Assembly (NCBI GenBank): GCA_002309715.1
Contig: DBXW01000005.1
Span: 321,613-385,612, forward strand
Reading direction: 5' to 3'
Length of the DNA stretch: 64,000 bases
From: Candidatus Avelusimicrobium cornigerorum
GTDB lineage: Bacteria > Elusimicrobiota > Elusimicrobia > Elusimicrobiales > Elusimicrobiaceae
Shown: in pieces, positions 10,081-43,805 of the stretch
Position numbering within the stretch: the stretch's first letter is position 1
How the letters are laid out: each line of letters opens with the position of its first letter
Program-made: the position numbers and the translations under genes
The notes under the pieces: model-generated
The model's database searches: none
Seen by the model: only the letters and a program-made list of their open reading frames with translations
Told to the model about the DNA's origin: nothing

Positions 10081-10593
10081 TTGCCGAAAAGTGTAAAAAC
10101 GCGGGTGGGGGAAGGCGATAAAGACGGTAATATGCCAGGCGAGCGGTACGGTTGCCGGTGCGGTATTGAGTGGCTGAGCGAGAAGGAAATGACTGCGGAA
10201 GAAAAAATAGCGGCAGTGCAAATAGATTTTAGCAAAAACAATATATTACCTTGGCTCAATCATGAACAATTAGAAGTATTGGGTAGTAAGAGTAAACCCG
10301 TGCTTTTTAAGAAAAGCACTCTCGGGCGTAATGCGGGGATTAGACATAAAGATATTTTGAAAAGCGAATATGATGAACTGTTAGGGGTTGCACTGTACAG
10401 CCCGGCTTTTCCACCAATAAAAGATCCTGTGCGGAAAAACTATTGGCATTTTATAGGGAAAGCGGGTAAATATAATTCGGTTGTTCTTTTGGATGTAGAA
10501 GATAAAAAAACTCATTTTGAAATAGTGCACTTAATCAAAATGAAAGAAAGGGGGATAACTAAGCTTTTGAGGAAAATAAGAAGACTAACCTAG
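10081..10593 (+). pseudogene. 5'-truncated phage MuF head-morphogenesis gene with a C-terminal BECR/PBECR-like RNase extension
   Basis: MPGERYGCRCG resembles the MuF C-terminal PG..CRC motif; IDFSKNNILP, RHKD, NSVVLLDV, EIVHL resemble PBECR-type domains; in-frame TGA immediately upstream. Confidence 0.6.
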
Positions 10594-10963: not shown

Positions 10964-10997
10964 GCGACACTATGTTGTCGCGCGGGTTTGTTATCCT
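10964..10997 (+). promoter_or_regulatory. WYL-activator box and promoter, site 1
   Basis: GCGACA-CTATGT-TGTCGC, then GCGGGTTTGT, then TATCCT. Confidence 0.8.
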
Positions 10998-13854: not shown

Positions 13855-14052
13855 TTATTTCCTCATACAGAACATGCTGTGGCTTGTCGATTCTACAAAG
13901 CATTCGATGTCGCCCAAATCGTAGCGGGCAATATTCGCTCCGGCGTATTGGGTAATCGTTTTAACTTGTTCCATTTTGATTTGGATTTGTGCCGCACCAT
14001 ATCCTACTCCGGCGGCCACAAGTAAGGCCAAAATTAAATAAATTTTCTTCAT
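13855..14052 (-). CDS. Small secreted/membrane protein
   Basis: MKKIYLILALLVAAG signal peptide; start overlaps the WYL stop (ATGA). Confidence 0.65.
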   Translation of the reverse strand: MKKIYLILALLVAAGVGYGAAQIQIKMEQVKTITQYAGANIARYDLGDIECFVESTSHSMFCMRK

Positions 14053-14969
14053 TTTACACTCCTTAAATAATCGTTTAAAACATCTTTTACACGTTTATGC
14101 ATAGACGTGGGAGAAATTACCTTAATATGCGGTAGCCAATGCAAAATGGTGGGGAGTATTTCTTCCTCTTTGGCGGCTTTGCACGAGAGGATTATGCGCC
14201 CGTCTTTGAGTTCCTTTTCTAGCTTTTGCAACGGAAAATAGTTTTTTTGTTTAAAGAAATGCGCGCACTCGGCCGATACTTCTAACTGCACCGATAAGGG
14301 GCGTTCCTTTTCAAACCATACATTCGTACTTTCTCGCAGGATTTTATCTATATTTTTATCGTATTTGAATGGTTTATTTGTGGCTTTGGCTGATGTAATT
14401 TTTTCCAAACGGAATTTAAGGAGTTTGTCATCAGTGGTAAGAGCCAAAAGATACCAAAAACCTTCCACCCACATTAACTTAAGCGGACGCATTAAATAGT
14501 CGGCCATTTTACCGCCCTTGTAGCATATTGTTACCCACTCACGCTCACGTACACATTCTTCCAAAGTGCGCGTAATAGGCGTATCTTTATACATTTCTCC
14601 GCTGTTCATTTTGATAAAGAAAGGGTTATCTTGCGGAGCGGCCAATAAGCGGTTTTTAAGCATGGCAAATGAATGACCGAAATTACCACCTAACGAGGAC
14701 GCCATATCACTCATAAGTACCAAAATAGATGCCTCGGCACTAGACAACTTCATTCGTTCTAACGAAAACCCTTCTTCAAATGCGTATACACCGGGATCAG
14801 GGTTCCACAGCGGGAAGTTGGCTTCTTGTATATCATTCATATCCCGCTGAATAGTGCGTACCGCTACACCAACTTCTGCCGCCATGTCTTTTAGGCGGAT
14901 GGCCCCCTTATCCAGGGCGTTAAGTTCATACAAAAGGCGAGTCAGTTTGTTGTGCATTTCTTTTTGCAT
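14049..14969 (-). CDS. wHTH-WYL-WCX transcriptional regulator (YafY/PafBC/DriD-like)
   Basis: GVAVRTIQRDM HTH; PLKL..GFWYLLA..KFRLEKI WYL domain; C-terminal WCX. Confidence 0.92.
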   Translation of the reverse strand: MQKEMHNKLTRLLYELNALDKGAIRLKDMAAEVGVAVRTIQRDMNDIQEANFPLWNPDPGVYAFEEGFSLERMKLSSAEASILVLMSDMASSLGGNFGHSFAMLKNRLLAAPQDNPFFIKMNSGEMYKDTPITRTLEECVREREWVTICYKGGKMADYLMRPLKLMWVEGFWYLLALTTDDKLLKFRLEKITSAKATNKPFKYDKNIDKILRESTNVWFEKERPLSVQLEVSAECAHFFKQKNYFPLQKLEKELKDGRIILSCKAAKEEEILPTILHWLPHIKVISPTSMHKRVKDVLNDYLRSVK

Positions 14970-15112: not shown

Positions 15113-15162
15113 AGTATAGCACATAGCAGCGACAAGGTGTTGTCGCAACAGTTTGTTATTCT
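15113..15162. promoter_or_regulatory. WYL box site 2, a symmetric bidirectional promoter
   Basis: GCGACA-AGGTGT-TGTCGC (15129-46); TATTCT 10 bp to the right and minus-strand TATACT 10 bp to the left, both preceded by TGn. Confidence 0.82.
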
Positions 15163-15195: not shown

Positions 15196-15636
15196 ATGCA
15201 GTTTAGTTTGTTTAAGTATTTTGACGCTATCTTGGACGGTGCAGAGCAAAACGGTCTGGCGGCGCTGGAACAACCGGAGGTAAAGAAAGCGCTTGCGGAA
15301 CTAGACAGTTTTTTGCCGCCTTTGTCCGACGTAGCCAAACTGGTGTTTAGTTATTACTATGTGTACCAGTTAAAGCCCCAGCCGTTGTTCATTTCGCAAC
15401 TTGAAAAGGACCTCAATGCGCCAACGCTATATTTGGAACACGAGAAAGTATGGCAAGAACTGGTGGATTTGGATTTATTGGTGCGGGTAATGGGGAGTGA
15501 ATATCTCATGCCGCGTAGCGTAATAGATGCGGTAGCGGTCATTGATTTGGAGTATTATTGGCCCAACGACCGCGTGATTATTGCGCCCGAGCATAAGAAA
15601 GAAGTATTTTGGCGGTGGATACATGGCCAAAAATGA
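15196..15636 (+). CDS. Hypothetical protein
   Basis: GGAG RBS before ATG 15196; first gene after WYL site 2. Confidence 0.7.
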   Translation: MQFSLFKYFDAILDGAEQNGLAALEQPEVKKALAELDSFLPPLSDVAKLVFSYYYVYQLKPQPLFISQLEKDLNAPTLYLEHEKVWQELVDLDLLVRVMGSEYLMPRSVIDAVAVIDLEYYWPNDRVIIAPEHKKEVFWRWIHGQK

Positions 15637-16504
15637 AATAATTTACGTGGCTAAACCCACTCGGTACACGGAGCAGACATACCCCGGACACACGAAATTT
15701 TATGAGCATTTTGTGTCGCAGTTGAGAGAATATCACGAAGTGCGCGCGCTGGAACTACCCGATATATGGGTGCGAGATTTTCTACCTGTGCAAAATGTGC
15801 AAACCGGAGAGCTATACCAACTCTTTTTTGACCCGCGCTATGCCAATTATACGCCTAAATTTACGGCGGCTATCCGCGAACAGGTACGGGGTGCTTTCCC
15901 GCGTGTTAAACCGTGTAATGTGCGTATAGACGGGGGAAATATCGTGCTGTCCCCTGGCAAAAAACGGGCATTTTGCTTGGAAAAACAAACGATTTTCCAT
16001 AAATCAAACCCCGGGCAAAAGGAACACGCGGAGCAAGAATTAAAGCGTGCGCTCGGTGTGCAGGAAATTTTATGGCTACCACAGCAAAAAGGCGACAAAA
16101 TCGGCCATATAGACGGGTATATCCAGTTTTTGGGAGATAATCTCATGGAAGGTGCGACAAACATTTTTGACGGAGATATTGCCCTTGAAACGTTGCTTGA
16201 TGATAAATCTAGCAATTTGTTAGCTAGTTTTCATCATTTTAAGACGGTGCCTTTGTTATGCCGGATAGACGAAAATAATTGGCTAAGTGCTAAAGGCCTT
16301 TACGTGAACTTTTTGGAAACGTCCCGCGCCGTTTTTGTGCCACAATTTAATTTGCCCGAAGATGACAAAATTGTTACTATAATGAAAAAGCACATCCATA
16401 AGCCGCTTGTGCGCGTGGATTGTGAACAAATATCGCAGTACGGCGGTGCGGTGCATTGTTTAACGAGGGAATATGAAAGATCAACAGTTGAAAAATATTT
16501 TTGA
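15623..16504 (+). CDS. Agmatine/peptidyl-arginine deiminase family protein
   Basis: WVRD, DGGN, GHIDG and GGAVHC catalytic motifs. Confidence 0.88.
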   Translation: MAKNEIIYVAKPTRYTEQTYPGHTKFYEHFVSQLREYHEVRALELPDIWVRDFLPVQNVQTGELYQLFFDPRYANYTPKFTAAIREQVRGAFPRVKPCNVRIDGGNIVLSPGKKRAFCLEKQTIFHKSNPGQKEHAEQELKRALGVQEILWLPQQKGDKIGHIDGYIQFLGDNLMEGATNIFDGDIALETLLDDKSSNLLASFHHFKTVPLLCRIDENNWLSAKGLYVNFLETSRAVFVPQFNLPEDDKIVTIMKKHIHKPLVRVDCEQISQYGGAVHCLTREYERSTVEKYF

Positions 16505-17018: not shown

Positions 17019-17054
17019 TTGCGACATAGTGCTGTCGCAAGGGTTTGTTATCCT
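17019..17054 (+). promoter_or_regulatory. WYL box site 3
   Basis: TTGCGACA-TAGTGC-TGTCGCAA; TATCCT 10 bp after TGTCGC. Confidence 0.82.
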
Positions 17055-17087: not shown

Positions 17088-19082
17088 ATGGAATACACTT
17101 ACGAACAATACGAGGCATTTTACTACCTACACAAGCTGTTGCCCTATCTGCAAAGTTTCGGCGATTTTGAAGATAATTTTTCTTGGTTTAGCCGGGCCTG
17201 TGGCCGTAAGCCTCTTATAGCATTTCGGCCCCTGAAAAAAGACACTCGGGAAGATCATATTAAATTTAATAAGAAGATCATTGAATTTTTGGATAAACAC
17301 GCACCTTGCTATTTGGAACAACCGCTATCCGTTCCCCGGAAAAATGTACGGGAATTGAGTAAACTGTTTGGCCTTTCCTCTCCCGAAGAAAATTTGGTAG
17401 CTTTTTTTACCCTTGCGCGTAGGAACCGTTTATTCAACAAAACGCTGCAGCGTTTTCAGCATGATTATTGCGAGAATAGGGAAGTGCTGGAATTAATAGC
17501 CGAAAAGACAGGGAATAATATCGGTTTTTTATTGAAATCCACTGCTCCGCTTATGAAATTGGGTATTTTACAGCGTCGGGGATATTCTGCGGACTATGCT
17601 GCCAGCCCGTGGCTGGAAGAATTTGTGAATAATCCGCATAAGGATTACGATGCCGTTTGTACGAGCATTTTGGGGAGCCCGACGACGTGCCAGGTTGCTC
17701 TTACTTCAAAAGACTTTAAATATGTGGAAGCGGCCGATTTGGCTTTGCGGCTTATGAAGCAAGCCAAACATACCAAAGGGTTTAATATTCTTTTATATGG
17801 TGTTCCCGGCACGGGAAAGACAAGTTTTGCCAAATATCTGGCTCAAGCGGCTAAACTCCGTTTGTACCCGGTAGGAGTATGTAATGAGGGGGAAGAAGAA
17901 AAAAATTATCGTTTGCAACAATTTTACCGCAAACAATATTTGTTGGAAAAAATAGATAATACGTGTATTCTTTTTGACGAGGGGGAAGATATGTTCTCTA
18001 GTTTGGAAACTCGTACCAATAAAATAGAAATCAATAATCTGTTGGAAAATAATGAAGTCCCTGTTATTTGGACGACCAATAAAATTCATCACATGGATCC
18101 GGCCTATATCCGGCGTTTTACGCTCGCGGTATGTTTTAACAAGCCTCCAATAGAAGTGCGCCAAAAAATTTGGAATAAGTACCTAACGGAAAATAAAATT
18201 ACATGCGGCAAGGAAGATACATTAAAACTTGCCAAAAAGTACGAAGTACCGCCATCCATGATTGCAGGGGCGGCGCAGGCGGCCCGTATGGCTAAAGGGG
18301 ATTTGAATACAGTTAAAGACCACCTGTCTTTTATGACGCAAGCTCTTAACGGCGGCTACAAAAAGCCGGAAGAAAACAAAAAAGAACATGAATTTTGCCC
18401 GGCGCTTATTCATGCGGATATAGATTTAAACGCATTGACTTCTCAATTAAAATGTTTGGGCCGTCTTAATTTCTCGCTTTGTTTGTATGGGGCTAGCGGG
18501 ACGGGTAAATCGGCTTACGCTCGGTATTTGGCCGATCAGTTAGGGTTAGATGTTTTGCACCGCAGAGCGTCGGATTTATTGTCTATGTGGGTTGGCGGAA
18601 CCGAGAAAAATATTGCCGAGGCATTCTCTGAGGCTAAGGAAGCCAAAGCTATGCTGATTTTTGATGAAGCCGATAGTTTCTTGCGTGATCGTTCTACGGC
18701 ATCACACTCATGGGAAGTGTCCGGCGTGAACGAAATGCTGACATGGATGGAGAGCCACCCCTATCCGTTTGTCTGTACGACCAATTTAATGGATACATTG
18801 GATCCGGCCAGTTTACGTCGGTTTAGTTTTAAGGTCAAATATGACTTTTTGACAAGAGAGCAGGTACAAGAAGCGTTTTCCTACTTTTTCGGCTTACATA
18901 TAACGCCTCGGCAAGTGGCGGGGTTAGATAAACTGACGCCCGGCGATTTTGCCCTTGTAAAGAACAAAGCCGAAATTTTGGGGAAAACTTCACAGTTTGA
19001 TGCCATCAGAGAAATGTTGGAAACCGAGCAAAAACTTAAACACAATTCCTATGGTAGCGGCATCGGTTTCCGCGTAAATTAA
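17088..19082 (+). CDS. AAA+ ATPase with two AAA modules
   Basis: GVPGTGKT/LFDE and GASGTGKS/LIFDEAD; DPAYIRRF and DPASLRRF Arg fingers. Confidence 0.9.
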   Translation: MEYTYEQYEAFYYLHKLLPYLQSFGDFEDNFSWFSRACGRKPLIAFRPLKKDTREDHIKFNKKIIEFLDKHAPCYLEQPLSVPRKNVRELSKLFGLSSPEENLVAFFTLARRNRLFNKTLQRFQHDYCENREVLELIAEKTGNNIGFLLKSTAPLMKLGILQRRGYSADYAASPWLEEFVNNPHKDYDAVCTSILGSPTTCQVALTSKDFKYVEAADLALRLMKQAKHTKGFNILLYGVPGTGKTSFAKYLAQAAKLRLYPVGVCNEGEEEKNYRLQQFYRKQYLLEKIDNTCILFDEGEDMFSSLETRTNKIEINNLLENNEVPVIWTTNKIHHMDPAYIRRFTLAVCFNKPPIEVRQKIWNKYLTENKITCGKEDTLKLAKKYEVPPSMIAGAAQAARMAKGDLNTVKDHLSFMTQALNGGYKKPEENKKEHEFCPALIHADIDLNALTSQLKCLGRLNFSLCLYGASGTGKSAYARYLADQLGLDVLHRRASDLLSMWVGGTEKNIAEAFSEAKEAKAMLIFDEADSFLRDRSTASHSWEVSGVNEMLTWMESHPYPFVCTTNLMDTLDPASLRRFSFKVKYDFLTREQVQEAFSYFFGLHITPRQVAGLDKLTPGDFALVKNKAEILGKTSQFDAIREMLETEQKLKHNSYGSGIGFRVN

Positions 19083-19095
19083 AGGAGAAAGAATT

Positions 19096-19881
19096 ATGAT
19101 AACAATGAAAGAACAAGCAGAGCAGTTCCGGAAACTTTTACACTATATGAATATGCCTAAAAAAGCAACCAATAATGGTATTGCAATCCCTTATGAAAAC
19201 TTGGCAAATGCGTGCATAGAGTTCGCACCCGGCGAGTGTTATAGTTTCTTCGGCAGTCAAGATACAAATACATTGTCTTGTTGGAAAACAAACTTACTGT
19301 TGAAATTATTGCAAAATGGGGTATCTGTCTGCGTGTTGGAAGGCGGCGATACTTTCCGGCACGATTTTGCAGAACTGGCTTGTTTGCAAGCCAAAATTGA
19401 TCCGGATATGATGTTGAGCGGACAGGGGGATGTGGAAGATTTTCAAGCGTTTACGCTTGGCCTTAAAGAAATCGCCCTATTCCCTATGGTATGGACGACG
19501 GATGAGGAAATTCCGTCAAACTTGAAAGGGCCAATGATTTGCGTAAAAAATATGACATTAGATGAGTGGCACGAGAACGCTGAAACGTTGTGGGTACAAG
19601 CCAGAGAGCGCAATGTGGTGCTATTTTTATTTGTAACTATACCACATTATGTGCCACTTAAATTTGATAGTTTATATCATCCGCATAAAATTATTGTGCC
19701 GGAAAATTTATCTTCCTATGTAGGGATGGTAAAAATGGAGCAAAGTGCCGGTTCCCCGTTAGAAAAGCAGCGGATGCAATTAGCACTTACTATCAAACAA
19801 ACAGAATCTTTTACGGTAGAGCATTTGTATTTTGATATTGACTCGCATTCCCGAGAGATTAGTGTGGCTTCACACATATAG
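19096..19881 (+). CDS. Degenerate DnaB/RecA-fold protein lacking a Walker A motif
   Basis: FAPGECYSF..GVSVCVLE..LACLQAKID..LSGQ..EDF follows the DnaB helicase pattern, but has no GKT. Confidence 0.5.
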   Translation: MITMKEQAEQFRKLLHYMNMPKKATNNGIAIPYENLANACIEFAPGECYSFFGSQDTNTLSCWKTNLLLKLLQNGVSVCVLEGGDTFRHDFAELACLQAKIDPDMMLSGQGDVEDFQAFTLGLKEIALFPMVWTTDEEIPSNLKGPMICVKNMTLDEWHENAETLWVQARERNVVLFLFVTIPHYVPLKFDSLYHPHKIIVPENLSSYVGMVKMEQSAGSPLEKQRMQLALTIKQTESFTVEHLYFDIDSHSREISVASHI

Positions 19882-19897
19882 CCATGGGAAGACTATT

Positions 19898-20569
19898 ATG
19901 AACAAATATCAAATGATCCGCAAGTGGAAACGCAGTAAAGAAGACGAAGATGTACAATTAGAGGCACTTTTTGACGCGTTGTATGCGCTTAAAAAGGTGA
20001 CAGAGGATGATTTATTTATTGAGTTGCACCTTAAGCGGCTTAGAGATAGAGGATATATTTATCCCAAGAGGGAAGCCGTGCGGCACTTTATGTGTTATCA
20101 ATTCGCCTACGAAGCAGAGCCATTTTTGGATAAAATGAACTGTTATCATCATAGCCCGATTGATTTGGCTAATCAAATTTATGAACGTATTTCCAAAGCC
20201 ATTGAACACGAAGATGAGGGCGTAGCATTTTATACATGTACGGGGGCTCCTGCTGTGATGGGCACGATCGTGTGCATGGGCAAAATGCAAGACGGAAAGT
20301 ATATCACTAATCCAACCGAAGGTGCGCCGCGCCAATTGGTGGACAAACTAACTCCCAACGATATTTTGATGTTTTTAACTAAATACGGCAAATGGCTCAA
20401 GGATCCGCTTCTGATGTTTGGCGTGTGGCGAACGTACGCTAAAAACAAGTATGGACCGTGGCTTATGTGCTTATGCCACCATTTGGGCACGGGCCGGCGT
20501 GAAGATTATTACGAGTATGCCTTTGATGCCGGATTAGATGCTATTGACTATATTGGCACGGAATTTTAA
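19898..20569 (+). CDS. Hypothetical protein
   Basis: 223-aa ORF continuing the operon. Confidence 0.7.
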   Translation: MNKYQMIRKWKRSKEDEDVQLEALFDALYALKKVTEDDLFIELHLKRLRDRGYIYPKREAVRHFMCYQFAYEAEPFLDKMNCYHHSPIDLANQIYERISKAIEHEDEGVAFYTCTGAPAVMGTIVCMGKMQDGKYITNPTEGAPRQLVDKLTPNDILMFLTKYGKWLKDPLLMFGVWRTYAKNKYGPWLMCLCHHLGTGRREDYYEYAFDAGLDAIDYIGTEF

Positions 20570-20578
20570 GTGTCAGTT

Positions 20579-20753
20579 TGGATCCTGCGAATTTGGTGGT
20601 TAGAGAAAAAGGCCCGAAATGGGCCTTTTTGGCGCCCATCTAAAAGCACTCTATGACCTAAACGGATAAAAACTGCGTAATTTTCCCGACGTGAGTGGGG
20701 AAAACTAGCCAACAAAAAAGGCACCTCCTACAAGATGCCTTTTCAAATGGTGG
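20579..20753. repeat. 175-bp island-end element, copy A, ending in a tRNA-like 3' end (TGGTGG)
   Basis: Same length as 42121-42295 and aligns with it throughout; weaker match to 43562-43735. Confidence 0.85.
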
Positions 20754-20996: not shown

Positions 20997-22136
20997 CTAT
21001 TGAACTTCCCTTTTCCAATGATCATAAATCGTTTTAATCGCTTGTGTTGATTTATAATCTAATTCATCATTTTTGGTCCAATCACTAGAAATTTTTCTAG
21101 CAGAAATAACTTTTTTCATTTCTTCCACAATTAACTTAGATTTTTTTTCTAAATAACTATGGAATCGAGCCCGTTCTTCGTCAGAACGGAAAATGATAAT
21201 ACGCTGATTTATTGGTTTGGTAAAACATTCTAATGAGCGGCTTATGGATTGAGTTTGAATAAATTTATTAAATAACCATAATAACGAGTTTTGCACGACA
21301 TAAAAATATGTGAACCATTTTTGTTTGTTACTCGATGGGGCGAATTCTTGATGAGGTACTGCAATATGGATACGACCTCCATCTAAACTGACATGATATT
21401 CTGAGTGAATAATGTGATCGTAAACCTTAAAGTCAGCTCTTTCCCAAGTGGCATCTTTGTCAGGAAAAATTTTAGATAAAAAATTCTTATGGTTGGTTTC
21501 GTATCCTTCTAATGTTAGGGAAAATTCTGGCGCAAATTCATAATAATAACGGCCAGTATATTCATCACTTCTCATCCAGTGCTCCGGTGAAGAGAGATAG
21601 TATTCTAATTTCATTAGGGGAGTTGCATCTATACGAAAACGTTTTTTAAATAAATACTCAACCTTGTCATTATCAGCAGTGGAATCTATAGGTGTGTTGG
21701 AGTCTTGAATCCTTGTATAGATATTCCCTTCGTGAGCGCACTTATTTCCGTCGTTGCATTTTTCGCGGAGAACAAAAGGAGTATTGCGCGAATTTTTTAT
21801 GGTTACCACATGTAGGGTTTTAGTGTTTATTGGGAGAGAATCAACAATTGTCTCAGGGCGGAAGTCCCCTACAAACTTCTTGCTACGTAGGAAGTCATTG
21901 AGTTGTTGCGTGTTCAATGCGTTCTCTGTTGTGGAGAGCCCGACAATTTGCGCGTTATCATTGACGCCAAAAATTAAGTAGGCGTCACGGTTTTCTAAAT
22001 TATTTGATAGACATATAATATCGTGAAGTAATTCGGCTTTGTTATTATGCCACGTTTCTTTGAAATCCCAATAACCGCCTTCTCGTTTTTTTGCTATGAG
22101 TTCAAGTACAATTTGTTTTATGTTTGTGTTGGGCAT
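20997..22136 (-). CDS. AlbA_2 (Schlafen-like) domain protein
   Basis: EGGYWDFKE..LLHDIICLSN..YLIFGVND; IYTRIQDSN. Confidence 0.85.
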   Translation of the reverse strand: MPNTNIKQIVLELIAKKREGGYWDFKETWHNNKAELLHDIICLSNNLENRDAYLIFGVNDNAQIVGLSTTENALNTQQLNDFLRSKKFVGDFRPETIVDSLPINTKTLHVVTIKNSRNTPFVLREKCNDGNKCAHEGNIYTRIQDSNTPIDSTADNDKVEYLFKKRFRIDATPLMKLEYYLSSPEHWMRSDEYTGRYYYEFAPEFSLTLEGYETNHKNFLSKIFPDKDATWERADFKVYDHIIHSEYHVSLDGGRIHIAVPHQEFAPSSNKQKWFTYFYVVQNSLLWLFNKFIQTQSISRSLECFTKPINQRIIIFRSDEERARFHSYLEKKSKLIVEEMKKVISARKISSDWTKNDELDYKSTQAIKTIYDHWKREVQ

Positions 22137-22141
22137 TTAAT

Positions 22142-22978
22142 TTATTTCTTTTTAATCTGTCTCTTCGGTGTAAAGTCCGGCAGGGAACTTTTGGATGTAA
22201 CTACCTTGGTTCCGGTGGCTTCTTCAAATTGTAAACGCGCTTGTTTGGCAAGTTTGCCGCCTTTACGCCCGGCTGCTTTATTTTCTTGCACGCCTTCTGC
22301 TTGGTCTTTCTCCGCAATTTGACGGGTGGATAACTCAGCCAAAGCCGTAAAAAGCAGTTCTGCTTCACTCATATGCTCGCGCAGGTTTTCATGCTCTAAC
22401 CCTTTTAACTTTTTGTGTTGGGCAACGGACAAATCACTCCACTCTTGGTGGATGACGTTTGTGAGCATGGCAAAATCGTCCGATTTGGTAACTCCGTGCG
22501 CTTGCCAGTAATCGGTTAGTTTATTGCGGGTTTCTTGGCCCGTCATGCGCTGTTGTATCCATTGTTTGCTACGGCCTTGCTTTTTCCAAGTTTGGCGCGC
22601 GCGATCCAGGGCCTTTGATGGGTCCGCGGTTTCCTGGATGCGCTCATAGCCCACTTTGGCCAGCCACAATTTAAATGGCTCAGCTTTGGGGCTAGGGATG
22701 GACTGGATAAGGCGTAAAAGCTGTTCCGGGGTGGCTACATCCGTCTTATAAAACTTGCCATCTGCCGCCTGTAATTTCAGTTGACTACAATTTGTAGCCA
22801 ACTGACTTCCCTCGGCTTTTAAACGGGTTTTTAAGACGCTCCAATATTTTCTAGGGTTATTGCTTTGAGTAAGCGCATAAATTACATCCACAATAGAAAA
22901 ATACCACGTTTCTGTCTTTTCGTCATAGTGGCGACGGATTTTAAAATCTTCAAAAATAGCAAGTGCTGATTTAGTCAT
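22142..22978 (-). CDS. Bro-N domain protein (antirepressor-like)
   Basis: IRRHYDE..WYFSIVDV..PRKYWSVLKTRL; QSIPSPKAEPFKLWLA. Confidence 0.88.
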   Translation of the reverse strand: MTKSALAIFEDFKIRRHYDEKTETWYFSIVDVIYALTQSNNPRKYWSVLKTRLKAEGSQLATNCSQLKLQAADGKFYKTDVATPEQLLRLIQSIPSPKAEPFKLWLAKVGYERIQETADPSKALDRARQTWKKQGRSKQWIQQRMTGQETRNKLTDYWQAHGVTKSDDFAMLTNVIHQEWSDLSVAQHKKLKGLEHENLREHMSEAELLFTALAELSTRQIAEKDQAEGVQENKAAGRKGGKLAKQARLQFEEATGTKVVTSKSSLPDFTPKRQIKKK

Positions 22979-22988
22979 ATAATCTCCT

Positions 22989-23573
22989 TTAATTCATTCT
23001 CACAAGTTTGGCTAAAATTTGGACGGACGCGTCTGCCGGGAACGGCTCATATTTGGACTTATTGTCCGATACCAACCGGTAGGCGGGGCCGTTTTCGGTG
23101 TTGTACCGCCCAAGGCGCTTAATTTTGAGCCCGTCTTCGCGGCGGCATAATACCACACTTCCAACAGAGGGCAACTGGCTAGTCTTACGGAACATTAGCA
23201 TATCCCCGTCACTAATAGACGGCTCCATAGAATCGCCCTTGGCCTTAATAAAAAACAAATCCTGCGTAGGGGTGGGCAAAAACTTAGTGGGCATATTCAC
23301 ATAGTCCACAATGTTTTCTTCGGCAAAAATGTCCGTATCCCCGCATTGGGCAAATCCGTAAAAGGGGATGGGGGTAAACTCATCCACGGGCCTGTGCGTG
23401 GCAATTAGCGCGTGCCCGTTACGCTCTAAAAAGTTTTCTTTAATCAGTTTGCGGATATGCACGTGCACGGTGCTGACCGATTTTAAGCCAACCACTTTAG
23501 CCAGTTCTGCCAAAGTGATTTGCGGGTTTTGTTGGACGAGTTCTAAAATTTGTTTTTGTTTTGCCGAAAGCAT
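22989..23573 (-). CDS. LexA-like S24 autopeptidase repressor
   Basis: wHTH; KGDSMEP (Ser) and KIKRL (Lys); FAQCG putative Cys-Gly cleavage site; GGAG RBS before ATG 23573. Confidence 0.88.
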   Translation of the reverse strand: MLSAKQKQILELVQQNPQITLAELAKVVGLKSVSTVHVHIRKLIKENFLERNGHALIATHRPVDEFTPIPFYGFAQCGDTDIFAEENIVDYVNMPTKFLPTPTQDLFFIKAKGDSMEPSISDGDMLMFRKTSQLPSVGSVVLCRREDGLKIKRLGRYNTENGPAYRLVSDNKSKYEPFPADASVQILAKLVRMN

Positions 23574-23621
23574 AGTGTTCTCCAATACAAACAGTATAAC
23601 TTTTTTTACGCGTTTAGTCAA

Positions 23622-23672
23622 TTTCTATTAAAAATAGAAAAAGTTGACATAAAATAGAAAATATGTTTTAAT
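23622..23672 (+). promoter_or_regulatory. Operator palindrome and rightward promoter
   Basis: TTTCTATT-AAA-AATAGAAA (23622-40); TTGACA (23644), 17 bp, TTTAAT; extra AATAGAAA half-site in the spacer. Confidence 0.7.
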
Positions 23673-23769
23673 GTAGCGTGGGTTTTGCCGTTATCGGCAA
23701 AAAATAGACTAACTCTAGAGGGATAAAATTATGACGGAAACAAATAAAACATAACACAAGGAGCAGTAT

Positions 23770-24816
23770 ATGAACGAAAACGAAGTAAAAGAAGTAACCG
23801 CGCAAGCGGAGTCCACCATGCCCAAACAGTACGAAGTAGGGTACGGTAAGCCGCCCAAGAAAACGCAATTCAAGCCAGGCCAAAGCGGTAACCCCAAAGG
23901 CCGCACCAAGGGAAGTAAAAACGGTATCTACACCTATATCCAGCGTGAATTAAACTCGTCCATTACGCTTACGGACGGTTCTAAAATTACCAAAGAACAG
24001 GGTTTTGCAAGACAACTAACCAATAAGGCACTTCGTGGCGATATCCAAAGCCAAAAGCTATTATTTAACATCCACCAAAAAGGGCAACGCAAAGATAAGG
24101 CCGAGCTGTTTATGGGCCGCCTGATTAAAGAGGGGTACGTGACGGAAGAAATGATAGATAATTTCTTGTACCACAATAAAATCATATCATCTGCCAAGCC
24201 GTGCGACCCGATGAAGTGCGATTTGAACTTGAATGCTATGTTTAAGCAGATAGGTGGCCGGAAGGCGTTTGGTACCGCACTTATTCTGTCGGACTTATTA
24301 TGCACGTATGCGTGCCTGTTTATTTTGGAAAACCTTTGGGAAGAAATATCCCAAGATTATTCATATTGGCAAGGTGTAGAGGACGCAACCGCTAACCTTG
24401 CCGAGGAACAAAAGGCAACGCTTTATCAAACATTAGCCGCAAACCGCCCCATAGCGCGAATTACAGATGAAGAGTACGAACAAATCCAAAAAGTAATAGA
24501 ACTGGTGCGCGTTGGGTTTATGCGGCAATTTAAAGAATATATGGACCTAATGGCGGAGAAAAGCGAGTATACCACGGTTGAGTGGGAGTTTAAGCGCGGC
24601 GATATGCTAACCCAAGCGCTAAAAAAGACGCACTTTCAATGGGAAATGAAAGAACTAAACGGCAGTTACGAGCATTTCAAAGGAGTATATCAATCGGCTC
24701 AAACCTTACCGAGTGTCGGCCAATGTGCCAAGTATATTGACGAATTGGGCATTAGCGAAGAAGATGCCATGCAAACAATAAGGGAATTATTGATTCCTTT
24801 GTTTGCCAAACGGTAA
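23770..24816 (+). CDS. DUF5681 domain protein
   Basis: YEVGYGKPPKKTQFKPGQSGNPKGR. Confidence 0.85.
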   Translation: MNENEVKEVTAQAESTMPKQYEVGYGKPPKKTQFKPGQSGNPKGRTKGSKNGIYTYIQRELNSSITLTDGSKITKEQGFARQLTNKALRGDIQSQKLLFNIHQKGQRKDKAELFMGRLIKEGYVTEEMIDNFLYHNKIISSAKPCDPMKCDLNLNAMFKQIGGRKAFGTALILSDLLCTYACLFILENLWEEISQDYSYWQGVEDATANLAEEQKATLYQTLAANRPIARITDEEYEQIQKVIELVRVGFMRQFKEYMDLMAEKSEYTTVEWEFKRGDMLTQALKKTHFQWEMKELNGSYEHFKGVYQSAQTLPSVGQCAKYIDELGISEEDAMQTIRELLIPLFAKR

Positions 24817-24857
24817 AAATTAACAACCCGGCAGCAATATTTACTAGTATCGCCGGG

Positions 24858-25883
24858 TTAACTTAATCCTATTTTTTTTATACTGTCTTCATTGAAACCA
24901 GACTCAAGTATGTGTAAATTTCCATTTTTGTTCTGCAAATCAAACAAATCATACCATCCTTGTTCTATATCCATCATTGGTTTAAGGGTGACGATAAAAA
25001 TCTCACATTCTGGATTTAATTGTGTTTGCAATACAAATCGTGTCGCTACATCTGTGAAGGGAATTGAGTAGCCAATAATATATAATTTGGTCGTTTGAGT
25101 TAAATTGTCTTTAAAAACATGCCATTGAAAATCTAGAAGTTTTGTTTTTAATTCAAAATTTTTAAGCATAGTTGGGGGGACTATTAAACATTGGAGTCCT
25201 TGTCGATATTCTGGTAAAGTATGGCTGGAAACGATTCTAACTCCATTTTGAAAATCCGGATCATATAACCAGTTAATGGAACCATGTAATTTATAAAGTT
25301 TGATGGATTTTCTCCAATAATCTCTAGCATCGTTATTGAAGAAGCTTGTGTTACTGTTATCCATAGTTTTTATGGTATAGATTGGATCAAAATCGTGGTT
25401 AGGATAGTTTAAAGATTGGGCAAGAAGATTTTCCAATACTAAATCATAATTAAAAGTGAATATTTCGGCTCGTTCATTATGTAAGCGTTTGGCAAAATTA
25501 TGAAGCCAAGGAACTTGTAATATGCTCTTTTCTTGATTTTTTCTTTCGAAGATTTTCACTATTAAATCTGTGATATACCGATATAGAATTGCTTTTAGGT
25601 GTTGATCTTTGTAATCTTCATAAGCAAAATCCGAGGATAAGAAAGTCATGATATCTTCGAAATTGGATCGATTTTTATCAGGATCTTGTTCCTCGATTGA
25701 TCGAATGTTTCCAATATTAGGTTGAACAATATATTGATCCCATATGTTTTTAATATCATTATCTGAAACAGACGTTATTCCTTCGGAAATTTCTTTTGTC
25801 AATTCATGAAGTAAAGGCATGCTGTTGCCTGCTATTGCTCGTGAGAAACCTGCTCCTAAAATAAAAATTTCTTTTTCTTCCAT
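24858..25883 (-). CDS. SIR2-like protein, putative NADase effector
   Basis: ILGAGFS, TFNYD, KLHGSINW, IIGYS; AT-rich. Confidence 0.88.
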   Translation of the reverse strand: MEEKEIFILGAGFSRAIAGNSMPLLHELTKEISEGITSVSDNDIKNIWDQYIVQPNIGNIRSIEEQDPDKNRSNFEDIMTFLSSDFAYEDYKDQHLKAILYRYITDLIVKIFERKNQEKSILQVPWLHNFAKRLHNERAEIFTFNYDLVLENLLAQSLNYPNHDFDPIYTIKTMDNSNTSFFNNDARDYWRKSIKLYKLHGSINWLYDPDFQNGVRIVSSHTLPEYRQGLQCLIVPPTMLKNFELKTKLLDFQWHVFKDNLTQTTKLYIIGYSIPFTDVATRFVLQTQLNPECEIFIVTLKPMMDIEQGWYDLFDLQNKNGNLHILESGFNEDSIKKIGLS

Positions 25884-26020
25884 ATTCTATTATTTATCCT
25901 CAAAGGTATATTAAACTGTATTACAGATAGAACATCGTGAAGATATTTATCTTCGTTATAATAGTATAACAAAATGAAATTATCATTGATATCATGAGAG
26001 AAAGATTTTCTTAAATTAGC

Positions 26021-26052
26021 TTGACTTATCGCCCGATAGTAAGCGTGAATGT
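26021..26052 (+). promoter_or_regulatory. Duplicated promoter element, copy 1
   Basis: TTGACTTATC-GCCCG-ATAGTAAGCG-TG-AATGT. Confidence 0.65.
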
Positions 26053-26090
26053 AGTACGAAGTAAAAATCGCTTACTTAAGGAGATAAGTT

Positions 26091-26399
26091 ATGAAGAAAA
26101 ACACTAAAAAATCAGCACCCAAAACTACATCTGCAAAACCCGCAGTTCTGCGCGTGGTAAGTCCTATCATGCAAGCAGAAACTGCGCTTGAAAACTTGCC
26201 GGTCCGGCCACGCGATAATCGCTTGCCTGCGCCGGGTAGCATCATCACTAAAACCTACCGCGGTAAAACCATAGAAGTAAAAGTATTGGAAAATGGCTTT
26301 GAATATGAAGGAAAAGTATTCAAAAGCATCTCGCGCGTGGCGATGACGATCGTTAAACGCCAAATCAGCGGTTATGTGTTCTTTGGACTTACCAAATGA
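26091..26399 (+). CDS. DUF2924 domain protein
   Basis: LPAPGSIITKTYRG..EYEGKVFKSISRVA..SGYVFFGL. Confidence 0.88.
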   Translation: MKKNTKKSAPKTTSAKPAVLRVVSPIMQAETALENLPVRPRDNRLPAPGSIITKTYRGKTIEVKVLENGFEYEGKVFKSISRVAMTIVKRQISGYVFFGLTK

Positions 26400-26599
26400 C
26401 ACCGCGCCAACTGCCACCAGTATCGGGGAGATTTGTAAAGGGCCGCTCGGGTAATCCCCTGGGGCGGCCTCCCCGAAATCTTTGTGAAAGAGATATTGTT
26501 TTGTTAGTCGCTAAATTTTTGGAAACTTTAGCCAAGGCCTATTGTAATCAAAGCCGTTCGGTGGAAAAAATCCGTCAGATTAAAGATATTTTGTCATGA
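26396..26599 (+). CDS. Small DUF5681-like protein
   Basis: RFVKGRSGNPLGRP; 4-bp overlaps with both neighbours. Confidence 0.7.
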   Translation: MTPRQLPPVSGRFVKGRSGNPLGRPPRNLCERDIVLLVAKFLETLAKAYCNQSRSVEKIRQIKDILS

Positions 26600-27036
26600 G
26601 AAGAAAATGCTACTTGCCCAAAAGTTATGAAGAATTAAAAGAATTATCTCCCAAAGAACTGCGGTTTTATTGGAATGTTTTCTATCCCAGTCCTTTGCGA
26701 GGTGTTAAGGCCAAGCTACGCCCTTTGTGGTATGCCATTCAATGTGAATTAGGGCGTTGCAAATTGCAAGAAAAATACATCACGCGGCTTGATCGTTATG
26801 CGAGCAATCCCGACAAGTATATTGAGCATGCGCATAAAAAGCGTTATGCGCTGGCCGTGGGCACGATTCTTACAAAAACTTATAAAGGACGGACGTATCA
26901 GGTGACCGTAAAAGGGGAAAACGCCTACGAGTGGGAAGGGAAAACATATCCCAATTTAACAGCACTAGCGGAGAAAATTGTGCGGGCCCACGTTAGCGGC
27001 CCCAAATTTTTTGGGTTAACGCGTAAAAAACTATGA
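26596..27036 (+). CDS. DUF2924 domain protein
   Basis: GTILTKTYKG..EWEGKTYPNLTALA..SGPKFFGL. Confidence 0.88.
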   Translation: MRRKCYLPKSYEELKELSPKELRFYWNVFYPSPLRGVKAKLRPLWYAIQCELGRCKLQEKYITRLDRYASNPDKYIEHAHKKRYALAVGTILTKTYKGRTYQVTVKGENAYEWEGKTYPNLTALAEKIVRAHVSGPKFFGLTRKKL

Positions 27037-27468
27037 ATTCATTGTCTGATTGTATATTGCAGATATAATATCGCATATATCTTGTATAGACAAAGTGATT
27101 TGAAATGTCCGTTTTTTATTTATGGGATTATAATCAGTAAAAGAGATCTTTTCTATATTTTCTTCTCCAATTATATTATCAAAAAAATGTCCATGGGCAA
27201 CGGAATTTCTTAGATGTTTGAACAAAGCTTCACTTGTTCGTTTAGATATTTTTATTTTTTCTGTTATACGAGGTATTTTTATGTTTTTTAATAACTCTGT
27301 TTCTTTTTCTTGGGGCAATATAATAAGTCCTAAAAAAGAATTTATTATTGCTGTAACTTCCCATGGATATCGAGAAGGATTTCGCTTGTTTTGATCAATA
27401 TAGAGATCTAAATTTTCTTTTGTTCTTTTTATAAAATCTTTTATCCCATCTTGTTTGCTGTATAACAC
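27031..27468 (-). CDS. HEPN family nuclease (pEK499_p136-like)
   Basis: YPWEVTAIINSFLGLIILP; RNSVAH (RxxxxH); GTG start. Confidence 0.8.
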   Translation of the reverse strand: MLYSKQDGIKDFIKRTKENLDLYIDQNKRNPSRYPWEVTAIINSFLGLIILPQEKETELLKNIKIPRITEKIKISKRTSEALFKHLRNSVAHGHFFDNIIGEENIEKISFTDYNPINKKRTFQITLSIQDICDIISAIYNQTMNS

Positions 27469-27500
27469 TTGACTTATCTCCCTATAGTAAGCGGTAATGT
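27469..27500 (+). promoter_or_regulatory. Duplicated promoter element, copy 2
   Basis: TTGACTTATC-TCCCT-ATAGTAAGCG-GT-AATGT; 28/32 identical to copy 1. Confidence 0.65.
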
Positions 27501-27520
27501 GTATAGGAGAATTATACTAA

Positions 27521-29149
27521 ATGGCAAAAATTAATTGTGCAATATACACCCGTAAATCTACGGAGCGCGGGCTGGAAATGGAGTTTAACTCGCTCCAAAA
27601 TCAGGAAGAGGCGTGCAAGGCCTATATTCTCTCGCAAGCATTTAACGGGTGGGAGTATTATAAAACTTTTGAGGATGGTGGGATTAGCGGTGGCACGATG
27701 GAGCGCCCCGGCTTACAGGCTCTTTTGGGAGAAATCCGCGCCCGCAATATACAAGTGGTTGTTGTCTACAAGGTGGACCGTCTGTCTCGCTCTATTTTTG
27801 ACTTCCATAAAATGATGCAGGAGTTTGCCAAGTATGAGTGCAACTTTGTATCTATCACGCAGTCTTTTGATACAAGCAATTCCATGGGTAAATTAACCCT
27901 CAATATGCTCTTATCTTTTGCACAATTTGAGCGGGAAGTATCCGCCGAGCGTGTGCGCGATAAAATTGCTGCCAGTAAGGCCAAAGGGCTATGGATGGGG
28001 GGTAATTTGCCATTAGGATATGACCTCAACGACAGGCATCTTGTGGTAAATGAGCCGGAAGCTGAGATCGTGCGGCAAGTGTTTCAAAAATATCTTGAAG
28101 TGCAAAATATGCTTGGAATGGCTGAATGGCTAAATAAACAGGGGATACATACCAAAAAATGGGTTACCAAACACAGCCAGCGTACGCGGGGCGGCGAACC
28201 GTTTAAGAAAAACACCGTGCAACGTATGCTGACAAATCCTGTTTACCTCGGCAAAATCACGCATTACAGACAAAATAAAATTTATAACGGAGTGCATAAA
28301 CCTATTATTACGCGTGAATTGTGGGAACAGGTCCAACAAGTAATTCGGCGACGTTTTCATGATCCCAATGCGTTTAACCACTATAAGTTCCATAAAACGG
28401 TTTTGGCGGATAAGTTATACGATGATAAAGGGAAAAAATTCCGTTTTACTTCCTCAAAAAGTCACCGGAGAAAAATACTGTATTACTACAACGGTGTAGG
28501 CGGGCATTACTTGCCCGTGGAGCAGTTGGATGGATTTGTGCTTGATATGCTCCGGCAAACAGATTTGGAGGAATTAGAGCCCCTGGCCGATGGAATTGGC
28601 ATAACGGATAAACAAATGCAGTCTTGGATTGTTAAGGCAACATGCCAGACGGCAGGGAAAGCGCATTATTTGACGATTCTTTTAGATGAAAAACAAATAA
28701 AAACCGATTTAATCAATTGCCCGAAAATAACGGAGAAATTAGAGAGAAAACCCCTTTCGCTAGAACGGATGGAAGGTAATTTATATGTGCGCGGGAAATT
28801 TGTGGTTGCCAATGTATCCTCTGTAAAATTGCGAAATGGCACAGCGCGCAATATTTTAACTGTACGGCAACTCAATGAAAGTTTAGTTCGCGCCTTGGCA
28901 CGAGGTTGGCAACTTAAAAAGATAAGCGAACGCGGCGGGGGAATGAGAGTTTTGGAAAAAGAAGTGCACATGACGAAACGCACGATTACGCGGTATATTA
29001 ACCTATGCTATTTATCCCCGCGCATAGTAACTGATATTTTAGAATACAGAAATACAAATAATGTGACTTTACGTGAGCTTATGAATGTTGCGGAAGGGGA
29101 GGTGAACTTTGAAGATCAGGAAAAACGATGGATAAAGCAAGATGTTTAA
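27521..29149 (+). CDS. Large serine recombinase
   Basis: CAIYTRKS catalytic Ser; VYKVDRLSRS; FAQFERE; recombinase DNA-binding domain. Confidence 0.95.
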   Translation: MAKINCAIYTRKSTERGLEMEFNSLQNQEEACKAYILSQAFNGWEYYKTFEDGGISGGTMERPGLQALLGEIRARNIQVVVVYKVDRLSRSIFDFHKMMQEFAKYECNFVSITQSFDTSNSMGKLTLNMLLSFAQFEREVSAERVRDKIAASKAKGLWMGGNLPLGYDLNDRHLVVNEPEAEIVRQVFQKYLEVQNMLGMAEWLNKQGIHTKKWVTKHSQRTRGGEPFKKNTVQRMLTNPVYLGKITHYRQNKIYNGVHKPIITRELWEQVQQVIRRRFHDPNAFNHYKFHKTVLADKLYDDKGKKFRFTSSKSHRRKILYYYNGVGGHYLPVEQLDGFVLDMLRQTDLEELEPLADGIGITDKQMQSWIVKATCQTAGKAHYLTILLDEKQIKTDLINCPKITEKLERKPLSLERMEGNLYVRGKFVVANVSSVKLRNGTARNILTVRQLNESLVRALARGWQLKKISERGGGMRVLEKEVHMTKRTITRYINLCYLSPRIVTDILEYRNTNNVTLRELMNVAEGEVNFEDQEKRWIKQDV

Positions 29150-29255: not shown

Positions 29256-29894
29256 ATGCAATTACAAAATAAAAGCCCATACAGTGCTTCTATGACAGGT
29301 TGTGGTTTCATGTTAGAAGAAATGAACCGTATCCTGCCGTTACTTATGGACCCAGCTTCAGACACCTTGTTGAAAAAGGAAGTTGTTGAAAATTCCTACT
29401 TAATGATCAATACAGAAAACACCAGAAAAAGAGCGGTGGTCGAACTTGTAAAAAGATATCAGTCTGTACCACAAGAATTTTGGAAAGAATATTTGTCTTT
29501 TTCCAAAGAGGCTCAGTGTGTAGCTATGTATTTTGTAAATTTAAAGTGTTATCGTCTCTTTTTTGATTTGCATTTAAATCTTGTTCTTAAGAAATGGCAT
29601 TCTATTCGCCAAACATTGACTAGAACGGATGTATTGATGGAAATAAATGCAATTGCTACCCAAGATGATTTCGTAGATAGTTGGAGTGATAATACGAAAA
29701 TCAAAGTGGCAAGTGCCTTCCTGTCTTTTCTACGTAAAGTTAAATTTTTGGAACCAAATGGGGAACAACTTAAGCCGATTTCTTTGACTGATGAAGAATT
29801 TGCATTTTATTTGAAAATACGAGAAAATTGGTTCTTGGAAGCTTGTCTCCTGCAGCCGTATGAAATTGAGCGTATTACAAAGGTGCTTGTATGA
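29256..29894 (+). CDS. brxA: BREX BrxA (DUF1819)
   Basis: YSASMTG.. family pattern; first gene of the BREX operon. Confidence 0.8.
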   Translation: MQLQNKSPYSASMTGCGFMLEEMNRILPLLMDPASDTLLKKEVVENSYLMINTENTRKRAVVELVKRYQSVPQEFWKEYLSFSKEAQCVAMYFVNLKCYRLFFDLHLNLVLKKWHSIRQTLTRTDVLMEINAIATQDDFVDSWSDNTKIKVASAFLSFLRKVKFLEPNGEQLKPISLTDEEFAFYLKIRENWFLEACLLQPYEIERITKVLV

Positions 29895-30499
29895 AAAATA
29901 TGAGTTTAAAAGAATTGGAAGAAAAATTGCGTAGCAATGAGTTCCAAAATACAGAAAATGATATTTTTTATAATTTTTTTATCTATCTGTATGATCCGGC
30001 TGATGAATATATAATGCGAGCACAGATACGTGAGTTTAAACAAAATCTTTTGCGTCCTGTTGATTATGTAGATGTTTTAACAATAGATATTTTCGAGGAA
30101 CTATGTAATTTTTTGAATAATCAACCGTACGGTAATTTTAATTCATCTTTATTGCAATATTTGCTTGAAAAAGATAAAGATGATCATGAAGCGGTGCTTC
30201 GACTATTAACAGGAAAAGCTAATTGTTCGGAATTCTATAAATATCTTGATAAGCACATTAAAGAACACATCAGTATTAGTGACGACAAAAAGCGGCCCTA
30301 TGTATTTTTATATGGACTAGGAAAAATTTTCCCGTATATGAGAATAAGTACGTTGTTGGCTAATTACGAGCAATACAACAAAAGCAGTCGTTATAAAATA
30401 ATTGTATTTTATCCCGGGAATAAAGAAGGTAATAATTACCGACTTTTTAACATTTTGGAAGATCATCATACATATCGTGCAACTTTAATGAATGGGTAA
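29891..30499 (+). CDS. brxB: BREX BrxB (DUF1788)
   Basis: FFIYLYDP..; GLGKIFPYMR; IIVFYPG. Confidence 0.82.
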   Translation: MKNMSLKELEEKLRSNEFQNTENDIFYNFFIYLYDPADEYIMRAQIREFKQNLLRPVDYVDVLTIDIFEELCNFLNNQPYGNFNSSLLQYLLEKDKDDHEAVLRLLTGKANCSEFYKYLDKHIKEHISISDDKKRPYVFLYGLGKIFPYMRISTLLANYEQYNKSSRYKIIVFYPGNKEGNNYRLFNILEDHHTYRATLMNG

Positions 30500-30504
30500 A
30501 TCAT

Positions 30505-33999: not shown

Positions 34000-34003
34000 A
34001 ATT

Positions 34004-37525: not shown

Positions 37526-37528
37526 ACC

Positions 37529-40054: not shown

Positions 40055-40062
40055 GAGATTAT

Positions 40063-42117: not shown

Positions 42118-42120
42118 CTT

Positions 42121-42295
42121 TGGATCTTGCGAAATTCGCAGTTAGAGAAAAAGGCCCATTTCGGGCCTTTTTGACGCGTATCTAAAAGCACTCTATGACC
42201 TAAACGGATAAAAATCACGTAATTTTCCCGACGAGCGTGGGAGAAATAGGCCAACAAAAAAGGCATCTCTTACAAGATGCCTTTTCAAATGGTGG
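42121..42295. repeat. 175-bp island-end element, copy B
   Basis: Direct repeat of 20579-20753. Confidence 0.85.
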
Positions 42296-42324
42296 TCCGC
42301 GCGAGACTTGAACCTGTGACCTTC
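42290..42324 (-). repeat. tRNA 3'-end relic, direct repeat 1
   Basis: Minus strand reads GAAGGTCACAGGTTCAAGTCTCGCGCGGACCACCA; 26/28 identical to 43499-43526. Confidence 0.75.
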
Positions 42325-43494: not shown

Positions 43495-43526
43495 GATACC
43501 GCGCAGGACTTGAACCTGTGACCTTC
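43495..43526 (-). repeat. tRNA 3'-end relic, direct repeat 2
   Basis: Minus strand GAAGGTCACAGGTTCAAGTCCTGCGCGGTATC. Confidence 0.7.
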
Positions 43527-43561
43527 CACGTATTAGTAAAGAAAAAAGCAAAGCCCAAAAG

Positions 43562-43732: not shown

Positions 43733-43805
43733 TGGACCGGAAGGGACTCGAACCCCTGACCTCCTGCGTGTAAAGCAGGCGCTCTACCAACTAAGCTACC
43801 GATCC
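43733..43805 (-). tRNA. tRNA-Val(TAC), CCA not encoded
   Basis: GGATCGG acceptor, D-arm TAGCTTAGTTGGTAGAGC, CCTGC-TTTACAC-GCAGG anticodon arm, GTTCGAG T-loop. Confidence 0.96.

Follow-up and report, generated by a model that had tools for sequence, protein, structure and literature searches.

Why would a gut bacterium hold on to a helicase motor without its catalytic residues, in a row with an ATPase of two AAA modules and a gene of no known family? The question is raised by three genes, here called A, B and C, in a 64,000-nucleotide (nt) stretch of Candidatus Avelusimicrobium cornigerorum (assembly GCA_002309715.1, contig DBXW01000005.1, positions 321,613 to 385,612; hereafter the window). 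A first-pass annotation made from the letters alone had outlined the three open reading frames (ORFs), and their coordinates, strand and order were all borne out (Table 1); they are co-directional, with intergenic gaps of 13 nt (A–B) and 16 nt (B–C). Judged by its alignments, predicted structure and substitution rates, B is a DnaB motor domain that has lost the residues for ATPase activity, DNA gripping and trans-activation and is nevertheless kept by selection. We tentatively favor the view that it acts by binding, together with C, and that A is a frequent, non-dedicated companion.

Gene B Is a DnaB Domain without Catalytic Residues

The ORF had been read as following the DnaB helicase pattern with FFGSQDTNT in the place of the P-loop. 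The string is present and aligns to Walker A in a profile–profile alignment, and AlphaFold, structure searches and the profile alignment agree on a DnaB-like fold. Starting from a 20-sequence alignment, AlphaFold gave a best predicted local distance difference test score (pLDDT) of 87.9, with three of the five models at 87–88. Foldseek ranked DnaB structures first (E 3.7e-13), and in the structure search the C-terminal domain of Helicobacter pylori DnaB matched with Z 22.3 and a root-mean-square deviation of 3.3 Å over 231 residues, ahead of T7 gp4 (Z 19.2), T4 gp41 and Twinkle (18–19) and RadA (15.2). With hhalign, a 25-sequence B profile aligned to host DnaB and island DnaB domains at a probability of 88.7 and E 3e-6 over 223 columns, and in the Atlas B falls among the DnaB_C clusters. 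Other searches with the sequence were silent: none of the hidden Markov model (HMM) libraries (Pfam, PHROG, NCBIfam, PADLOC) was of use for B, PDB sequences gave nothing significant (the best match of a wider profile was DnaB 2q6t, at E 0.84) and a close B alignment set against host DnaB alone was not significant. Annotation pipelines built on these four libraries therefore miss the family.

With the DnaB C-terminal domain (PF03796; PDB 4a1f, 4nmn, 2r6a, 6kza), B shares a fold of about 230 residues that includes the linker-helix and docking-helix positions, but it has no Pfam match, is about 12% identical to DnaB structures and lacks the N-terminal collar, its alignment starting at about DnaB residue 173–204 and its 261 residues comparing with 471 in host DnaB. 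The residues on which DnaB catalysis depends are replaced throughout. In the hhalign alignment the Walker A Lys becomes Leu60, the Thr Ser61, the catalytic Glu Gly84 and the H3 Gln Thr181, with Leu60 and Gly84 invariant in 20 close homologues; the KQR of the host arginine finger aligns to KQT (234–236), and none of the 20 aligned homologue rows has an Arg there. The Walker B Asp appears as Lys151 in the strand MICVK, a register set by eye from the predicted strand because hhalign is unreliable there, and about 20 residues ahead of Walker B, again by eye, are deleted. Helices are predicted at the places that match the linker (residues 4–18) and docking (85–126) helices, from which we infer that B may retain the sites where helicase loaders bind. 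The portions available of two reports (PMC6391071; bioRxiv 2024.11.09.622779) place the binding of lambda P and DciA at this linker/docking helix site of DnaB.

Our counts of gene occurrence come from a survey of 145 genomes of Elusimicrobiaceae, in which G labels denote genomes and L labels mapped loci, and they are descriptive, as related genomes are not independent. The loss of all catalytic motifs, with eight of 23 B-family copies broken or partial, could mean that B is a DnaB paralogue in decay, with no function left. Selection largely refutes this, and we regard it as very improbable: ratios of nonsynonymous to synonymous substitution rates (dN/dS) were 0.06–0.27 in 15 pairs and 0.16–0.45 in six pairs of distant subfamilies, the model of B is confidently folded, and full-length homologues of 240–273 residues keep the hydrophobic core at 16–98% identity. 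The family is small, with 21 matches among 1.84 billion representatives, and occurs in 19 of the 401 genomes of the phylum, all of them Elusimicrobiaceae; the named homologues belong to Candidatus Avelusimicrobium and other members of that family. One named family of divergent DnaB-like ATPase domains, divDNAB (PF20307), matched none of the 20 members of the B family scanned (E up to 5) and gave weak partial matches, below cut-off at E ~1e-4, to two proteins in which C is fused to DnaB (see below); our literature search found no description of it.

Gene C Is Linked to DnaB Domains

C has 48 homologues and dN/dS of 0.08–0.22 in pairs with defined dS. The HMM libraries gave nothing useful for it, the Atlas held no match and no PDB fold resembled it (best Foldseek E 0.37, best Z 4.2), a result that settles neither novelty nor absence. 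Its model (pLDDT 74.6) was matched at E < 0.001 by seven uncharacterized or unnamed viral proteins, mostly over 130–150 residues, and as modeled the C-terminal domain of C resembles uncharacterized phage proteins. Phage Spud gp106, which was equated with the matching BFVD entry B5LKL1 by length alone (no other gene in the first 100 kb of that phage encodes 433 aa), belongs to no named family and shows no sequence similarity to C.

The link to B comes from gene fusion. In two relatives (G080 and G033), residues 1–125 of one protein form a C-family domain and the remainder a DnaB C-terminal domain whose Walker A is intact; this fusion ties C to B. The N-terminal domain of the fusion aligns to C residues 74–223 at an hhalign E of 4e-5; this homology is weak but holds transitively, since stand-alone proteins in G117 and G109 match both the C profile (E 2e-8 and 3e-9) and the fusion domain (E 2e-21 and 3e-19) in a search of 16,556 six-frame segments. 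In G160, a DnaB domain with intact Walker A lies directly 5′ of a C-like gene. As far as gene arrangement can tell, the fusions and this gene order provide the strongest evidence for joint action of C and DnaB domains. B and C are also found together in 13 genomes. A search for fused C proteins of greater length (428–2000 aa) found none, the known fusions being shorter than that range.

A domain of about 76 residues was also seen fused to the end of a DnaB domain in G160 and G135 (L126:2050-3099, L144:600-1604), at the start of a C-like protein in G152 and as a stand-alone protein in G165 (L122:11624-12397, L127:5364-5594). Through it, DnaB domains and C are linked a second time, indirectly.

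The Three Genes Form a Recurrent but Optional Grouping

Gene A is present in 42 of the 145 genomes, B in 21 and C in 21, and the three do co-occur elsewhere, in family genomes as well as at metagenome loci. Intact A-B-C runs were found in G000, G073, G158 and G100 (where A is cut by the contig end). B is the first or second gene after a double-AAA gene in 11 of its 21 genomes, and at metagenome loci, which may overlap genomes already counted, A lies directly ahead of B in seven of nine. A different, ClpB-type AAA gene precedes a gene with nothing but a DnaB domain, behind operator boxes of the kind described below, in G117, where that gene is a B, and in G162, where the AAA gene is in two pieces and the DnaB domain degenerate. 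These patterns, together with the threading-type pore loop and hypervariable N-domain of A, could be explained by a dedicated three-part system in which B baits phage loaders or helicase inhibitors, A recognizes the bait once occupied and remodels it, and C serves as effector.

We consider such a system unlikely, and the trio as one dedicated machine, as the first-pass annotation had drawn it, is not supported; the role of decoy or sensor that it gave to B, and remodelling of B by A, stay hypothetical. Among the 47 mapped A loci, B adjoins A at 11 and is missing from 36, three of them at a contig edge. A has nearby a WYL gene at 30 of 42 mapped loci, a deiminase-like gene at 28 of 42 and a DUF2779 gene at 22 of 42, and it travels with these more often than with B. 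In a quick tree, A proteins followed by B were interleaved with those that lack it. B and C have boxes of their own in G001 and G027, where no A was found, and in G008. The same internal deletion in G064 and G099 has reduced B to a 56-codon frame just after the AAA gene (L097, L096), with A intact in both and C intact in G064; A is likewise intact despite a B deletion in G103. The grouping A-B-C is a recurrent but optional one: B tends to go with an AAA gene and with C, while A does not need B. A 494-aa gene that precedes two dead DnaB domains (G079 and G064) was considered as a further AAA partner and rejected, as it is a terminase.

The B genes away from double-AAA and ClpB-type genes were found behind their own box in genomes where no A was found (two genomes), next to a recombinase and a Walker-A-intact DnaB domain (five) or as isolated partial copies (two). 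More collar-less DnaB domains, in every state from an intact Walker A to full degeneration and frequently in tandem, lie on DUF2924/recombinase elements or behind boxes (L170, L172, L173, L174, L175, L176, L169, L181 and L182). A second explanation takes collar-less DnaB domains, active and dead alike, to be subunits or adaptors that help a mobile element replicate or recruit the host helicase; B and C would have come to share a promoter with A through cassette shuffling, by recombination in the conserved 3′ part of A. The pairing of B-family genes with Walker-A-intact DnaB domains by a recombinase (G015, G030, G061, G105, G118), the element-borne domains in all degrees of decay and the mosaic structure of A described below all suit it. 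The close B subfamily, however, sits behind damage-type boxes among nucleases and not in a replication module, the island encodes no evident replication initiator, and B has neither a collar for primase nor an arginine finger to stimulate a neighboring subunit; B and C were also not found in IMG/VR. We rate this explanation as somewhat unlikely.

Gene A Belongs to a Widespread Double-AAA Family

The first-pass annotation had seen two intact AAA modules in A, as do we from the Pfam match to two AAA stretches and from the motifs: Walker A GVPGTGKT (238) and GASGTGKS (468), Walker B ILFDE and LIFDE, and RRF fingers. All of 42 homologues retain Walker A2, Walker B2, sensor 1 and finger 2, and all 41 that cover the region retain finger 1. 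In the variants shown, module 2 has a pore loop of the aromatic-Val-Gly type, which in classical AAA proteins is the mark of a motor that threads proteins. The family of A is already catalogued, with PHROG_10401 ("ATPase") covering residues 54–660 at E 3e-76, and is under purifying selection (dN/dS 0.07–0.14). Identity to A among homologues is 54–95% in module 1 and 59–87% in module 2 and falls to 17–35% in the N-domain (approximately residues 1–205), whose hypervariability suggests a variable specificity domain; no Pfam match fell in residues 1–200 among the best 25 of 49 families. Relative to the A of G000, those of G008 and G109 are 84–87% identical in module 2 and 55–56% in module 1. To judge from this mosaic, module 2 is exchanged together with the downstream genes.

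Two known systems come closest. Like A, Cdc48/p97 type II AAA+ proteins have two classical AAA modules in tandem and, in module 2, a pore loop of the threading type, but A has a hypervariable N-domain that appears unrelated to their double-psi barrel and is island-borne beside a WYL gene, and its score with the CDC48 model TIGR01243 was 66.5 bits against a cut-off of 802.65. The best defense-library match of the second module was IetA of IetAS (PADLOC E 1e-34); IetA, in contrast, has one AAA module, A scored 102.9 bits against the IetA equivalog cut-off of 510 and no S8 protease IetS was present among the 18 neighboring proteins scanned.

Outside the 42 family genomes, homologues of A were found in one of 283 other genomes of the phylum and on 12 plasmids. 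A WYL gene lies within 7 kb at four of five proteobacterial plasmid loci and a DUF2779 gene at one, with neither B nor C near A at any of the five. The family is widespread and usually beside WYL regulators. The deiminase-like neighbor in the window (15623-16504) is of the agmatine/peptidylarginine deiminase type (PF04371), and its pairing with the double-AAA gene is unexplained.

A WYL-Type Promoter Precedes the Genes

An operon start at the third WYL site and an end at the island-end repeat had been proposed, and the box and the repeat were confirmed at these places; a perfect inverted repeat within the latter is, from its sequence, the probable terminator (Table 1). Perfect copies of the box occur exactly three times in the whole genome, all within the island, where they would make up one regulon, and one imperfect copy lies outside it, near a second WYL gene. 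Beside that second WYL gene (contig C5, L145:2794-6806), two adjacent ORFs of 572 and 763 aa carry GTPase-like motifs and resemble a dynamin-like pair.

In 54 mapped related loci (808 kb) we found 91 boxes with at most one mismatch, where shuffled sequences gave 0.6. The motif TA-N3-T followed at exactly 10 nt in 89 of the 91, and at other offsets in 1–19 of 91. The geometry is that of a PafBC/DriD-type regulon, with a half-site 10 nt before the -10 hexamer and a helix-turn-helix (HTH)-WYL-WCX regulator in the locus, and by sequence it equals the PafBC consensus, given as tGTCgg(N10)tA(N3)T in the part available of PMC8635444. PafBC is described as an activator stimulated by single-stranded DNA (PMC8635444 and PMC11804915, from the parts available), and the available parts of PMC13010146 and PMC9186387 give CGAC-N7-GTCG as the operator core of DriD/DdaA. 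The island thus shares an HTH-WYL-WCX regulator with mycobacterial PafBC and with DriD/DdaA of Caulobacter and Acinetobacter, the promoter arrangement TGTCG-N10-TA-N3-T with PafBC and the palindromic CGAC...GTCG core with DriD, as far as these sources describe them. It differs in a spacer of 8 nt, against 7 nt in the described DriD/DdaA core, in having a single WYL gene and in its targets, which are island cargo (nucleases, the AAA ATPase and the pseudo-DnaB). The island's own regulator probably reads the boxes. The control logic itself is already known.

The Island and Its Surroundings

The island spans approximately 10.9–20.75 kb of the window and includes the WYL regulator, a Cas4-like DUF2779 nuclease, two HNH proteins and the deiminase-like gene. 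The two copies of the island-end repeat in the window are 86% identical over 177 nt; the repeat is found 3′ of C in many relatives and abuts the 3′ end of tRNA-Val. In one related contig the repeat runs straight into the tRNA-Val gene, which places the island at the tRNA-Val 3′ end and indicates that a second element has been inserted between the two here. We propose that A-B-C is the last transcription unit of a WYL-controlled tRNA-Val island built from cassettes shuffled between strains.

Table 1. Positions in the window of genes A, B and C and of the elements that frame and control them
Feature	Position	Strand	Description
Gene A	17088-19082	+	Double-AAA+ ATPase, 664 aa
Gene B	19096-19881	+	DnaB C-terminal (RecA-fold) domain, 261 aa; catalytically dead, linker helix present, N-terminal collar absent
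Gene C	19898-20569	+	223 aa, no known family
WYL regulator	14049-14969	-	HTH-WYL-WCX; WYL E 1e-8, WCX E 6e-9 (Pfam)
Box 1	10964-10981	+	Upstream of the Cas4-like DUF2779 gene
Box 2	15129-15146	+	Between the WYL gene and the deiminase-like/HNH operon
Box 3	17021-17038	+	Palindromic WYL-type operator GCGACA-N6-TGTCGC, third of three in the island
-10-like hexamer	17049-17054	+	TATCCT, exactly 10 nt past box 3; PafBC-type promoter geometry
Inverted repeat	20606-20630	+	Perfect, 25 nt, A/T tails; putative terminator
Island-end repeat	20577-20753	+	177 nt; second copy at 42119-42295

Several neighbors were recorded in passing. A gene for a large polyvalent protein-associated domain, LPD13, lies at the left side of the island (10081-10593). 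The second element contains, at 20997-29149, a Schlafen/AlbA protein matching PADLOC PDC-S50 (E 7e-103), a SIR2-like protein, Bro-N, a LexA-like S24 regulator, DUF5681 and a serine recombinase. Within the same element, bounded by the repeats at 20577 and 42119, six co-directional ORFs of 212, 202, 1164, 1173, 841 and 684 aa follow at 29256-42117; their sizes and order are those expected of type I BREX. Stacked insertions at one site are marked by two degenerate tRNA 3′ fragments and tRNA-Val (42290-42320, 43495-43530 and 43733-43805), and a 296-aa ORF among them (42596-43486) has what we assume to be a Fic-like motif.

Discussion

The reading that we favor, at somewhat less than an even chance, is that of a WYL-inducible cassette in which the pseudo-DnaB B acts by binding, as a helicase poison or a loader decoy, together with C, and in which A is a frequent, non-dedicated companion. 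Single-stranded DNA from DNA damage or an invading element would activate the island WYL protein and switch on the box promoter at 17021, an induction suggested by the promoter geometry and the known WYL activators. B would then enter DnaB-type rings as a dead subunit via its linker and docking helices or, alternatively, soak up the helicase loaders of host, phage or mobile element; in either case loading of the helicase would stall during the action of the island nucleases. C may be B's partner, as a regulator, antidote or targeting domain, as the gene fusion suggests. A would serve as a general ATP-driven protein remodeller of islands, co-transcribed here and independent of B, that may clear B complexes.

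Several observations weigh against this reading. Its main weakness is that the helices of B may now serve another partner: at about 12% identity to DnaB structures, B may have ceased to fit the rings or loaders of DnaB. Only 20 aligned sequences underlie the model of B, its linker helix is less confident (pLDDT 73–77) and two of the five AlphaFold models were poor (pLDDT 65 and 56). C occurs without B in eight of 21 genomes, and B without C in eight of 21 and on one further contig. The two fusions are close kin, probably stemming from a single event, and Walker A is intact in their DnaB part. The broken or partial copies among the 23 in 21 genomes suggest that B is dispensable or costly, and the five copies that lie by a serine recombinase and a Walker-A-intact DnaB domain have no box, a setting that fits a housekeeping role for the element.

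That the locus matches no named system, as first claimed, holds in that none was found with this gene content. Our literature search, with supplements and most subscription papers outside its reach, found no dead DnaB cassette, no WYL-linked double-AAA gene and no report of this Elusimicrobiota island; nor do the parts available of PMC4012209 and PMC7824862 mention any of the three. The pseudo-DnaB family and its link to C are real cargo, undescribed in the literature found, of a known kind of regulon, and not a demonstrated three-gene system. The double-AAA family recurs by WYL regulators from Elusimicrobiota to Proteobacteria with no role described in the literature found.

Phages are known to hijack helicase loading: lambda P occupies the DnaB surface that host loaders use. 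A broader view, which we regard as rather unlikely, is that bacteria have repeatedly turned the replicative-helicase motor into a pseudo-enzyme induced by damage or infection, accompanied by an AAA+ remodeller and a phage-like C, that baits or blocks the helicase loading of phages and mobile elements; such replisome-decoy immunity, if true, would be an undescribed class. As far as its sequence tells, this gut bacterium keeps a dead copy of its own helicase motor domain, with a partner of no known family and a remodelling ATPase, behind a switch of the DNA-damage-sensing type, and may use it as a binding decoy or to slow DNA replication. If this is true, the selected, inducible dead DnaB domain would be a host- or element-side means to contest helicase loading and would offer a tool for studying helicase rings and their loaders.

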